From IMG/VR virus record IMGVR_UViG_2531839661_000011: a stretch of 15,995 bases of DNA; one strand, given 5' to 3'. How positions within the stretch are numbered: position 1 is the first letter of the stretch; the number at the start of each line of letters is the position of its first letter. Made by a program: the position numbers. This DNA is from a virus (lineage: Duplodnaviria; Heunggongvirae; Uroviricota; Caudoviricetes). This document shows positions 3,001-6,000 of the stretch, piece by piece.

Positions 3001-6000
3001 CAGGCTATCACGAAAGCCGTGACGGACTCAAAGCACTGGGCGCAGAACGTCACCATTACATTAATCTGGCACGCGCAGAGAACCGTGTTACAGGTCTGGT
3101 GGCTGGAGAACGCAGCACAGCCAGCGAGCAACAGTTAGGCTTACTGATAGTCATGCAGAAAATCGAGCAGGCAGCATTTGACGAGGCGATACAGAGCGGC
3201 ATGACACCGACCGAAGCGGTGCGGGAGGTTGCCTGCCGCATGGAGACGTTCGCCAGCCTGATGACGTCAGCGCCGTCTCTGGGGGTGAATCATGCGTAAT
3301 TATGTTATCCCTCCCAATCATGAAGGCGGTTATATTTATGTGGCGCTTTCTGACATTGGATTAGTTAAGGTTGGAAAAACCAGAAATGTTTCAGCCAGAA
3401 TGAAACAGCTATCCACTGGTAGCGGCATAGTAATCACTAAAGTCGAGGTGTTAGGGCCATTTGTTAATTACGGACAAGTCGAATTAGCTATTCATGCAAA
3501 ACTTACATCAGAACGCCGTTCTGGTGAGTGGTTTTCTGCTGATTTTGATACGGTTAAAGCAATTGCTATCGATACATCAGGAATAGGTACTCCTGGTGCG
3601 GAATTAGTTAACAACGATGCTTATCGCTACGAACGCGTGTTTTTATGGTTTAGTGCGCATGAGGAACAAATTAAATACGAACAAGCACTTTGCGAAATAT
3701 TATCTGATACGGCAATTAACTTTCTTAAGGAGTATGGCACAGCTTGCGCCCCATATGTTGCTTTATGTATTCACACAATGGGGGGTGTAACTCTTCAACA
3801 GGGACAAAAGGCCTACTCTGTATATCCTTGTGGATTTAAAGAGTCCACATTGGATCAGTTAAGGGAGGATTGGAATAATTTTGCAGATAAAGATATTTTC
3901 GAAGACTCTGATTTTGATGATTTTCTTATAGACATAAGTGATAAAGATAAATTTAAGTCAGAAGCTGAGGAATGGAGAACTGATGCAATAAATAATCTTT
4001 TCACAGAACTCACCGATGATTACCAGCGCTGGCTGGCCCGTCGCATGGGAGAGCATGAACATGCCTGACATCCTCAAACCTGCTGTCCGGTACATCGACA
4101 CGGCGGATAAGTTCGCACTACTGAACATCAACCATGCTGATTACATGCGCCATATCGTGAGCCATTTCGCCGCTGAGCGCATGAAACACGTTAAGCATTA
4201 TCAGAAGGAGGCTTTATCAAATTATCGCACTGGTGGCCCTGTACGGCGCGAATATCCGCATGATGCAGGAATGGCAGGCAAAACAAAGGCGACCACGAAA
4301 GGGTCGCCAGTGGAGATAAAGGAAATCAAGCGCATCACCAACTATGCCATGAGTGTAGCTGGTGGACAATGCTATCAGCCAGGCGGTCGGTTTTTAGTGG
4401 CTTTTAACCGCCGTGGGTATTTCTCGACAAAATCTTCAAGGGCAAATTTTTTAGCTTTTGTATGTGATGCCTTTGACTCGTCATCACATGTTTTTCCGCG
4501 CCTTATCCTGTTTTCAATAAAACGGGAGGCGGCCTTTTTATTCAGCGATGAATCAATGGGGCTGCTCCCTGTTTGCTGCTCGACAATGGCATCCATGAGT
4601 AGTTGGTGTTGTAGTTGTCGTAAAAATTTCTCATCTTCTGGTGGTAAATCCATACTTATTTCCTGTACAGCGGAGCGACGCAGCACCTCACACCACGGCG
4701 CTGATGGTTGTTATTCGTTTTATGGAGTCAAAGAAGCAAAAGCGGATCGCTATCGGTTTTTAGGCGAGATTAATCGCCGTGGGTATTTGTCCAGAAATGC
4801 CTCAAGCGCAAATCGTTTTGGTCTGGTGAGAGGAGAGGGATTAAGCAAAGACTCACGTTCCAGGCGTACTTTTTCGCGCTGGCGCTCAAGTATGGATAAT
4901 GCGATTTCCTGTAATTCTTCATTTGTCATTGTCTGTACCCGTAAAGCGGTGCGCTGTAGTACCTCATATCACAGCGCAGGTATTTTTTATGGTTGTAATT
5001 TGCGTGATGATTCAGGTCGCTTTGCGACATACTGCATAAACATAAATAACGTGATGTTATTATGTGCTTTCAAAGAAAACGCAGGTATTTTTCGCACAAA
5101 CTTCTCTCGCAACACATCCGACCACTTAAGCAAAAAAGCGGCATATACTGAGGCTATCCCTTATAAAACGGGGATCGGGCGTAGGAACCCGTTTAACTGT
5201 GAGGCGACAAATGACGCCAGAAGCGTCTTTTTTTCTGCCAGCGATTTACGCCATATCAATGGTGTTGTGCATTGTGCGTACCCGTGCACCATCCAGTCAT
5301 TTCACGAGTTGCATTTTGCACAGCGCCACCAGCAAACAATGGTGATGCTGGCGGGGCTACCGAAAGGTAGGCCGGAGTCCTTACAGTCCGGTATTCCTAC
5401 CCCCGCCAGTGTCACCGCCCTGTGTGAGCGTAGGAACTCCAGCGGTGACGTTATTTATCACTGTAAGGAGGCTGCCACTATGGCTACTACCCCTACCCTG
5501 GTACATTCTCAAACCGCCTTCATCTGGCGCTTTATCACTGTTGGCACGTCAGAACGTCAAATCATCCACGTAACCGCCTGGACGGAACTCGAAGCGCGTA
5601 ACCGTTGCCCGTCAGGTTGCGTTGCTGTATTCGCCGCCCGTATCCGTCAGGAGGCATCACATGGATAAAAACATGTTGATCGCCTCTTCTTTCGGGCTGT
5701 ATGATGCCGGAGTCGCCCACATGGCGACCGGGTTTAGCAGCCTGAATAAATTGGCGGACAGCCGCCCATATCCGATAAGCGGTTTTTTTGTGTCCGTAAA
5801 CCTACCCATACCCGCATTATGGCGGGGCGTAACGGGGGAGCCTTTGCGCTCGCTGGTTTCCCAATTTGCCAGTCTGCTAACCCTGTTACGTCTCGCCACC
5901 ACGTTTAGCAGCGTAGTAGCGAGACTCCTTAACATTAAATTGGGAGCCTTTCACATGGCTGTATCCGCACGCCCTTACTTTGTCTGGCGCTTTATGCAGT

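Follow-up and report, generated by a model that had tools for sequence, protein, structure and literature searches.

How an antisense RNA might decide whether its own transcript is completed is a question raised by an Escherichia coli chromosomal island integrated between yicC and dinD. The island is represented by IMG/VR record IMGVR_UViG_2531839661_000011 (Caudoviricetes), whose 15,995 nucleotides (nt) are referred to here as the window; O43 strain RM10042 and several other strains, Shiga toxin-producing E. coli isolates among them, carry an identical island. In this DNA, two C4/CI-type antisense RNAs each follow a leader in which a target site of the antisense RNA, b1, overlaps a hairpin (A) that is incompatible with a terminator-like hairpin (T). 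An earlier sequence-only reading had proposed that pairing of the antisense RNA with b1 frees T and causes premature termination. Our analysis demonstrated the parts of this arrangement, their homology to known systems, the match of b1 to the loop of its cognate C4 RNA, and a conserved and partly covarying A/T alternative. Judging from this anatomy and from the satellite P4, we consider it on balance probable that each leader is a transcription attenuator that senses its own antisense RNA through an A/T switch; we infer that C4 binding would shift the leader from A to T and raise termination. The elements on which the argument turns are the following.

5156..5234, plus strand: leader RNA of unit 1, isrK/P4 SeqA type, assigned by matches to Rfam RF01394 (isrK) and RF03163 (c4-a1b1) and by alignment to the P4 leader.
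5196..5204, plus strand: b1 of unit 1, ACTGTGAGG, predicted target of the hairpin-2 loop CCTTACAGT (5379-5387) of the first C4 RNA (C4#1), with 9 base pairs (bp), one of them G.U.
5203..5218, plus strand: hairpin A of unit 1, candidate anti-terminator, GGCG (5203-5206) with CGCC (5215-5218); -4.7 to -6.2 kcal/mol.
5213..5234, plus strand: predicted intrinsic terminator T of unit 1, P4 t1 counterpart, GACGC (5213-5217), loop CAGAA, GCGTC (5223-5227) and U7 (5228-5234); called by the terminator scan and corresponding to the terminator hairpin of the isrK model.
5712..5789, plus strand: leader RNA of unit 2, P1/P7 c4-a1b1 type, assigned by RF01394 isrK and RF03163 c4-a1b1 matches and by its identity to P7.
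5748..5754, plus strand: b1 of unit 2, AAATTGG, predicted to form 7 bp with the hairpin-2 loop CCAATTT (5861-5867) of the second C4 RNA (C4#2).
5753..5766, plus strand: hairpin A of unit 2, putative anti-terminator, GGCGG (5753-5757) with CCGCC (5762-5766); -8.1 to -8.9 kcal/mol, present in the minimum-energy leader fold.
5762..5789, plus strand: weak terminator-like hairpin T of unit 2, CCGC (5762-5765), 13-nt loop, GCGG (5779-5782) and U7 (5783-5789); excludes hairpin A; -3.3 kcal/mol alone.

Every b1 site, hairpin and T7 tract named in the sequence-only reading was recovered in place in both units. The mutual exclusion of A and T that it described for unit 1 stands; the bases that it took to be shared (5213-5218) shrink to a paired overlap of 3 nt (5215-5217). 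Likewise, b1 does overlap the left arm of A, and what falls is the claim that it covers the arm, as just two of four bases in unit 1 and two of five in unit 2 lie within b1. In unit 1, hairpin A is the centroid of the 5196-5227 fold, its 5' arm being anchored 2 nt inside b1 as in the relatives, and T lies 9 nt beyond b1 and 100 nt ahead of C4#1. In unit 2, T ends 26 nt ahead of C4#2; it was not called by the consensus terminator scan because its loop exceeds 8 nt, and in the isrK alignment it takes the place of the terminator, with 11 nt inserted in the loop. The two units had also been described as unrelated in sequence, with conservation of topology without conservation of sequence offered as an argument for function. 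Both match the same two Rfam models, isrK and c4-a1b1, and since they are homologs their shared topology is inherited rather than convergent, so that this argument fails. Sequence comparison thus identifies the region as two tandem, diverged copies of one known module, in the order promoter, isrK/SeqA-type leader (a1 hairpin, b1, terminator), C4/CI RNA, a2/b2 and Icd-like open reading frame (ORF). Unit 1 is the counterpart of P4 seqA and terminator t1, while the leader and c4 of unit 2 share 80% identity with the c4 region of P7 and P1.

How firmly the leaders belong to described families was assessed against the curated Rfam models. Both C4 RNAs exceeded the RF01695 gathering score of 45 bits (69.0 bits for C4#1 and 73.3 bits for C4#2), with model positions 1-87 covered. 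The leaders are significant homologs of isrK and c4-a1b1 by these alignments, yet lie under the curated cut-offs. For isrK (gathering score 50), unit 1 (5156-5233) reached 49.6 bits (E=1.6e-9), short by 0.4, and unit 2 (5712-5789) 37.6 bits (E=2e-6), both matches being full-length; the cmscan alignments place the isrK architecture of two 5' hairpins, linker, terminator hairpin and U tract in both units. For c4-a1b1 (gathering score 46.7 bits), 5699-5748 scored 32.4 bits (E=3e-6) and 5143-5195 24.6 bits (E=8e-4), and the layout of that motif is present in both, with a1 in the loop of hairpin 2, b1 4-5 nt past the hairpin, and each site complementary to a' or b' of its own C4 RNA. A search at the gathering threshold therefore recovers the C4 RNAs alone, and the leader matches need an E-value threshold. 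The placement of P4 t1, a hairpin with a U tract between the leader promoter and C4 and after the upstream target, is found in both units, as are the two strand-sharing, mutually exclusive and evolutionarily kept helices that define an attenuator in general, with weaker support for the unit-1-type A.

The comparisons that follow draw on leaders and C4 RNAs gathered from IMG/VR and from one genome per species, with hosts that include Erwinia, Serratia, Yersinia, Aeromonas and Pseudomonas. Relatives (labelled L below) were found by scanning the viral and genome collections for exact patterns; many of them had been missed by nhmmer profiles made from four or five seed sequences. Icd-like genes found by protein query with no C4 RNA or leader upstream (L039-L083, L114-L127) were left out, and C4-pattern matches in six non-enterobacterial contigs (L269, L270, L284, L317, L321, L361) were set aside as chance. 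The antisense RNAs and their downstream targets in the window are these.

5335..5422, plus strand: C4/CI-type antisense RNA C4#1 (Rfam RF01695 C4, 69% identity to the P4 cI region), with b' at 5379-5387 and a' TTCCTAC at 5394-5400.
5430..5469, plus strand: predicted downstream targets of C4#1, a2 GTAGGAA (5430-5436, perfect 7 bp to a') and b2 ACTGTAAGGA (5460-5469, perfect 10 bp to b').
5815..5903, plus strand: C4 antisense RNA C4#2 (Rfam RF01695 C4), with b' at 5861-5867 and a' CTGCTAA at 5874-5880.
5905..5946, plus strand: downstream targets of C4#2 by complementarity, a2 TTAGCAG (5905-5911) and b2 AAATTGGGAG (5937-5946).

In each unit, b2 overlies the Shine-Dalgarno sequence of the Icd-like ORF that follows. 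Among the relatives, b1 varies and tracks both the hairpin-2 loop (b') of its own C4 RNA and b2: across 72 unique leader-loop pairs with 45 distinct loops, b1 matched its own loop with an average of 8.3 pair-equivalents and foreign loops with 4.0. This covariation identifies b1 as a genuine cognate target, and both sites in the window are leaders of C4/CI-type RNAs, which bears out the earlier suggestion that they are targets of antisense RNA. The cognate duplexes of the two window units were computed at -15.0 and -10.1 kcal/mol, compared with -5.5 and -7.8 kcal/mol for the cross-unit pairs, and by these energies the two units are predicted not to cross-react. A second contact within unit 2, between a' of C4#2 (GTCTGCTAA, 5872-5880) and the end of b1 with the 5' arm of A (TTGGCGGAC, 5751-5759), comprises 9 bp with 2 G.U; it is not conserved in P7 and was set aside as a probable coincidence. 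If formed, the GTCTGCTAA/TTGGCGGAC pairing would fully open hairpin A of unit 2.

Evidence for the A/T alternative from the window sequence taken singly is weak: folding z-scores of the short segments were -0.8 and -1.4, and a terminator scan of 4600-6400 returned 3 sites where 1.6 were expected. We judge the feature real because of the comparative evidence. A helix that is exclusive with T and begins 2 nt inside b1 is maintained over about 12 different arm sequences. Such a b1-anchored helix of at least 4 bp occurs in 59 of 66 sequence classes, and an equally good one arises about 5% of the time when the free bases of linker and loop are shuffled; for the window itself the corresponding values were 0.7% (unit 1) and 1.7% (unit 2). 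Of 85 P4-type leaders, nearly all have a 5' arm of A that begins 2 nt before b1 ends.

Among the relatives of unit 2 (32 unique leaders), helix A was 97.5% paired, and its outer pair, whose 5' base lies within b1, was U-A in 16, G-C in seven, A-U in six, G.U in one and unpaired in two. The covariation score of A was 0.256 against 0.054 in shuffled alignments, and none of 500 shuffles attained it. RNAalifold predicted A in these leaders unaided and did not predict T, whose four core pairs are invariant in 31-32 of the 32 relatives and hence uninformative. In divergent relatives, three segments change together: GGCGC/GCGCC/GGCGC in L134 and the Pseudomonas type, GCGGC/GCCGC/GCGGC in L157 and GCGGC/GTCGC/GCGGC in L275, with further cases in L311, L262, L286 and L333. 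A first segment that copies the third around a complementary second is, as read from these alignments, the classical signature of an attenuator.

The relatives of unit 1 (55 unique leaders) present the reverse picture, as RNAalifold selected T, whose stem was 99.6% paired and whose basal pair covaries (GC in 36, CG in 19). Helix A (GGCG/CGCC) was 94.5% paired and near-invariant, with few compensatory cases (AGCGC/GCGCT, GCGC/GCGC, GGTG/CACC and GGAGC/GCTCT, and a TGCG/CGCA variant in L352, which has the same shifted register as unit 1 of the window). In the P4-type T loop, positions 1-3 (GCC, the partner of GGC) are kept like stem bases and positions 4-5 vary. An extension of the P4-type A further into b1, by co-variation with T loop position 4, was complementary by inspection in about half of the cases and was rejected. 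Taken together, these alignments give good support to the A/T alternative for the unit-2 type and modest support for the unit-1 type.

Comparison with P4 places unit 1 in a setting where antisense-dependent termination is already described: there, the CI RNA causes premature termination through seqA and seqC (PMC4825925). Unit 1 is colinear and alignable with P4 throughout, from the -10 box to the small Icd/kil-like ORF, and aligns base by base with the P4 terminator hairpin ahead of the CI region. Common to both are a 5' hairpin that follows the -10 box, a second hairpin with the a1-like site, and GGCG ahead of a GACGC-type terminator that ends in U7; about 100 nt further on come the CI/C4 RNA and targets over the Shine-Dalgarno sequence. 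The two differ in the specificities of both sites: the a1-like site is GTGAGAA in P4 and GTAGGAA in unit 1, each complementary to its own CI/C4 RNA, and the b1-like site is TTCACAGG in P4 and ACTGTGAGG in unit 1. The T loop of unit 1 is CAGAA instead of the GCCNN of the P4 type, and therefore the register of A is shifted by 2 nt and overlaps three bases of the T stem. Most P4-type leaders, P4 included (L003, ~1860-1905), also have an outer helix CGACA/TGTCG around T, 90% paired with some covariation, which is absent from unit 1 (5205-5245), where CTGCC takes its place. Because CGACA lies right after b1 and TGTCG just past the U tract, this helix would be possible in read-through RNA only. P4 has no second unit, whereas the window carries a P1-type unit in tandem, and the island lacks the sid/delta/psu context of P4. 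In P4, t1 lies between the PLE promoter and cI, and its termination is said to require the CI RNA and seqA; the CI RNA reportedly stimulates termination at t1 in vitro, and t1 is said to serve the autoregulation of CI. The outcome that the sequence-only reading predicted is the same as this reported behaviour of t1.

Unit 2 resembles the immI region of P1 and P7 in having its promoter at the position of P1c4, two leader hairpins, a1 in the loop of the second and b1 directly 3' of it. Both also have the CCGC...GCGG stem with its U tract, and c4, a2/b2 and icd beyond it; hairpin A reads TGCGG/CCGCA in P1 and P7 and GGCGG/CCGCC in unit 2, and the b specificity is AAATTGG in unit 2, GATTGTG in P7 and GTTAGTG in P1. 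T of unit 2 (-3.3 kcal/mol) is weaker than the bulged 9-bp hairpin of P1 and P7 (about -8.5 kcal/mol), which about equals A there. An ant gene follows in the P1/P7 system and none follows unit 2. In the P1 record, a1 and b1 carry the label 'putative' and the stretch from b1 to c4 has no annotated terminator, and the description of the c4-a1b1 motif (Weinberg et al. 2010 supplement) ends before b1 and mentions no alternative hairpins.

Both leaders also resemble IsrK of Gifsy-1, with its three-hairpin leader and Rho-independent terminator with partial read-through. Downstream of IsrK lie a small ORF and STnc1160, a processed RNA overlapping orf45 that the IsrK authors liken to the P4 CI RNA; modulation of the IsrK terminator by this C4 homolog was offered by those authors as speculation only. 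The documented role of IsrK differs from attenuation, as it acts in trans and switches on orf45-anrP translation by remodelling the read-through mRNA. The logic proposed here is shared by the attenuators of plasmids pT181, pIP501 and pAMbeta1, to which the window units have no sequence relationship. In these plasmids, an antisense RNA acting on the nascent leader blocks anti-terminator pairing and so allows an intrinsic terminator upstream of the replication genes to form; the antisense RNAs are opposite-strand transcripts, fully complementary to their targets. In contrast, the C4 RNAs of the window are encoded downstream on the same strand and would be processed from the same transcript, and two short segments of 7-10 nt, in loops or single-stranded, would make the contact with the target.

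The energetics of the two leaders differ in direction. At -8.9 kcal/mol, A of unit 2 greatly exceeds T (-3.3 kcal/mol) in stability and is held by the minimum-energy leader fold, which lacks T; this leader would therefore be read through by default. Removing the two b1 bases weakens A from -8.1 to -1.4 kcal/mol, below the strength of T. In unit 1, the isolated helices are near-equal (A -6.2, T -6.9 kcal/mol), and removal of the b1 bases takes A from -4.7 to +2.0 kcal/mol. As T is slightly stronger here, A could act only kinetically. In its minimum-energy fold, the leader of unit 1 has b1 paired with the 5' end. For the P4 leader, the same equilibrium calculation predicts T whatever the state of b1; since it does not reproduce the reported dependence of t1 on the CI RNA and seqA, equilibrium folding cannot decide the matter. 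The nascent P4 leader is predicted to hold an A-like hairpin before the 3' arm of T emerges, and on this modelling a kinetic block of terminator nucleation is a plausible mode of action in the P4 type.

The promoters, leader hairpins and reading frames that complete the two units are listed here.

5144..5149, plus strand: putative -10 box TATACT of the unit 1 promoter, at the same position as the -10 TATAGT annotated in the P4 early-region record.
5156-5175, plus strand: leader 1, hairpin 1.
5176-5191, plus strand: leader 1, hairpin 2, with a1 GTAGGAA (5181-5187) in the loop.
5480..5668, plus strand: Icd-like ORF 1, 62 amino acids (aa), NCBIfam NF033153 phage_ICD_like, E=4e-16.
5676..5705, plus strand: putative unit 2 promoter from the promoter scan, TTGATC, 18 nt, TATGAT, at the position of P1 promoter P1c4 (former P51b).
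5712-5728, plus strand: leader 2, hairpin 1.
5729-5744, plus strand: leader 2, hairpin 2, with a1 TTAGCAG (5734-5740) in the loop.
5955..6125, plus strand: Icd-like ORF 2, 56 aa, NCBIfam NF033153, E=1.6e-14.

The isrK match of unit 1 begins at 5156, 7 nt 3' of the -10 box. No convincing -35 box was seen in 5120-5155, where the promoter scan made no call, and the unit 1 promoter may depend on an activator or on read-through from plus-strand genes upstream.

From these parts we propose the following mechanism. The second hairpin of the leader would display a1 in its loop and a single-stranded linker would expose b1, with the last two bases of b1 serving as the first two of hairpin A, and the 3' arm of A would be built from the 5' arm of T and its apical bases, T being followed by U7. 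When C4 RNA is scarce, A would fold first on the nascent RNA and hinder nucleation of T, so that polymerase would continue through the C4 gene and the Icd-like ORF to the replication genes. With plentiful C4 RNA, the nascent leader would be bound at b1 (and a1) by the b' loop (and a'); A would then be deprived of its 5' arm, T would form, and transcription would halt at the U tract. The net effect would be negative feedback on C4 synthesis together with a gate on all downstream genes, with a released short leader RNA that retains a1 and b1 as a by-product. The two units would differ in specificity and have opposite default states.

Several results weigh against this attenuator reading. At equilibrium, the full leader of unit 1 gives T a probability of about 1 and A of about 0 whether b1 is blocked or free, and T of unit 2 is poor (4 bp, 13-nt loop), so that blocking b1 lifts its probability from 0 to about 0.2 only. 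The earlier claim that b1 pairing frees T is borne out as far as A is concerned, which without its b1 bases is abolished in unit 1 and weaker than T in unit 2, and is not supported by the equilibrium prediction for T itself. In the comparative data, a control in which the 3' partner was slid by one column scored 0.233, near the 0.256 of A in the unit-2 type, and variation in that type is limited to about three clades and therefore represents few independent events. For the unit-1 type, the helix-A statistics are weak, as the observed values were attained by 15 and 11 of 500 shuffles; most P4-type A helices have just 4 bp (about -3.9 kcal/mol, versus -7 to -9 kcal/mol for T) and a one-base overlap with the T stem, and A is absent from two leaders (L354, L272). 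In about 22 genuine P4-type C4 units (L256, L259, L260, L271, L279, L289, L290, L296, L304, L318, L324, L329, L367 and others), b1 is followed directly by a hairpin with no T tract; sequence comparison indicates that the terminator was lost or replaced there and b1 kept, and b1 would therefore have a role beyond the control of T. Finally, Gifsy-1 IsrK gives experimental support to a different role for a short terminated leader, that of a trans partner of the C4 region. The earlier reading as a whole is thus partly supported.

Three other explanations deserve to be weighed against attenuation. The leaders could be constitutive partial terminators that yield a short, stable IsrK/SeqA-like RNA acting in trans, with A setting a fixed ratio of short to read-through transcripts without C4 control. 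Through a1 and b1, such a leader would bind the C4 RNA, or the C4 stretch in read-through transcripts, either titrating C4 off a2/b2 as a decoy or remodelling the mRNA for translation. In Gifsy-1, the short form of IsrK, produced at a Rho-independent terminator that is partly read through, works in trans on the orf45 region and activates translation; the approximately 22 units that retain b1 without a T tract and the prediction of T in unit 1 whatever the occupancy of b1 also fit this account. Competition of a1/b1 with a2/b2 for the c4 RNA was proposed by Citron and Schuster, as quoted in the Weinberg et al. 2010 supplement. What a trans-acting leader leaves unexplained is the anchoring of the 5' arm of A within b1, seen in almost every relative, and the joint change of the A and T segments. 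Termination at P4 t1 is, moreover, reportedly dependent on the CI RNA and seqA. We regard this account as unlikely, though deserving of some weight; it is compatible with attenuation, and both could operate together. A further reading holds that hairpin A, at least in the 4-bp form of unit 1, has no function and arises as a by-product of other constraints: the GG end of b1 would be forced by mimicry of the Shine-Dalgarno-bearing b2, the GC-rich terminator and its loop would be kept for termination, and any effect of C4 would come from breaking the predicted long-range pairing of the leader 5' end with b1 or from a steric effect on the elongation complex. The weak helix-specific statistics of the P4-type A are consistent with this, as are the 1-nt overlap of the A and T stems in most P4-type relatives and the inconsistent complementarity, on inspection, of an extension of A into b1; A is also never populated in equilibrium folds of unit 1 or P4, and the minimum-energy fold of unit 1 pairs b1 with the 5' end instead. 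A by-product, however, would not explain why T loop positions 1-3 (GCC) are as strongly kept as the stem while positions 4-5 are free, why compensatory variants occur in several lineages, why A is b1-anchored in 59 of 66 classes as against about 5% in shuffles, or why three segments clearly co-vary in the long-loop relatives, unit 2 included, and we consider it improbable.

It is also conceivable that ribosomes rather than the antisense RNA control termination, translation through the leader, T and C4 melting both A and T in the manner of leader-peptide attenuation, with ATG 5661, coupled to the stop of Icd-like ORF 1, as one candidate start. In 78 of 113 unique units, no stop codon interrupts the Icd frame across C4 and the leader; the median upstream extent of this frame is 225 nt, compared with 41-55 nt in the other frames; ATG 5661 overlaps the Icd 1 stop in frame with Icd 2, and Pfam Phage_ASH matches the translated leader and C4. 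However, we hold ribosome control to be very improbable because the inferred transcription starts (5156, 5712) sit at the first hairpin, and inspection found no Shine-Dalgarno sequence or start codon before b1. Ribosome entry could, besides, apply only to transcripts that read through from unit 1 into unit 2, and the P4 and P1 immunity factors are reported to act as RNAs (Citron and Schuster 1990; Forti et al.).

The long reading frames themselves bear on how this region is annotated. In the window, the Icd frame is open far upstream, over 550 codons at 4016-5668 and 155 codons at 5661-6125, and among 113 unique P4-type units (relatives L249-L368), 78 keep it open for 450 nt or more, the median span on the reverse strand being 180 nt. 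The match to Pfam Phage_ASH (PF10554) comprises aa 377-498, approximately nt 5144-5509, and corresponds to the old P4 'ash' ORF and the P1 'c4 ORF'. ATG 5661 lies within CATGGATAA (5661-5668), overlaps the stop of ORF 1 and is in frame with the ORF 2 ATG at 5955; from this layout, ribosomes finishing ORF 1 could reinitiate there and go on to translate the leader of unit 2, its terminator and C4#2. The RefSeq 550-aa Icd-like protein (4016-5668) and the 'frameshifted' Icd-like pseudogene are probably annotation artefacts, and the region is at present mis-annotated as protein through the 550-aa 'Icd-like' coding sequence, the 'frameshifted' pseudogene and 'ash family protein' entries. About 350 nt upstream of many of the Icd-like genes left out above (L039-L083, L114-L127) lie a small gene in divergent orientation, a stretch resembling a promoter and a conserved hairpin, GCCCCG...CGGGGC, with UCUAACCA after it, a layout that resembles a separate control region serving this small protein.

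The island around the two units carries an integrase, a helix-turn-helix regulator, Rha and GIY-YIG genes 5' of the region and, 3' of it, small ORFs and primase, SSB, ProQ/FinO, PerC-like and Q-like genes; the Rha, GIY-YIG, ProQ/FinO, PerC and Q-like genes distinguish it from P4. Tandem C4 units of which the second is of the P1 type, with an Icd-like ORF after each, recur in many IMG/VR contigs (L005, L009, L015, L016, L023, L030, L032, L034, L038 and others). In those relatives, the first C4 RNA begins about 23 nt past the terminator, whereas the window and P4 have about 100 nt there. Two small minus-strand ORFs (4375-4686 and 4750-4929, both on the minus strand) located between the GIY-YIG gene and unit 1 are paralogous, sharing a 75-nt direct repeat (4387-4461 and 4753-4827) that is 75% identical, and similar sequences precede both, with CGCAGGTATTTTT occurring twice in exact copies (4975-4987 and 5080-5092). 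These two ORFs had no Pfam or Rfam matches, and an Rfam search of 4300-5160 likewise gave no match.

Whether the arrangement extends beyond this island can be answered only tentatively. A hairpin that overlaps b1 may be a general means by which C4/CI RNAs switch on leader terminators in P4-like satellites, P1/P7-like phages and related Pseudomonas and Aeromonas elements, a possibility to which we give somewhat less credence than to attenuation in the window itself. It is apparently undescribed, as the literature searched, which did not cover Briani et al. 2000 or Sabbattini et al. 1995, contained no description of a hairpin overlapping b1 or of an anti-terminator at that site. Antisense-dependent termination in the P4 leader is already known, and the detail that may be new is the b1-overlapping hairpin.

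If correct, the proposal would supply a concrete and testable structural basis for antisense-dependent termination at P4 t1, in which occupancy of b1 removes the 5' arm of the anti-terminator. It would also reach the immI leader of P1 and P7, where a1 and b1 have been 'putative' since 1990 and the terminator is unannotated, and would assign the a1/b1 sites of P1, long unexplained, to attenuation-based autoregulation of c4. In the window, the tandem units would form two independent gates keyed by antisense RNAs, with opposite defaults, before one replication operon, and many enterobacterial islands would likewise set two gates of different specificity in series ahead of their replication genes. 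Such an arrangement would bear on how satellite immunity is maintained and on cross-immunity among co-resident elements.

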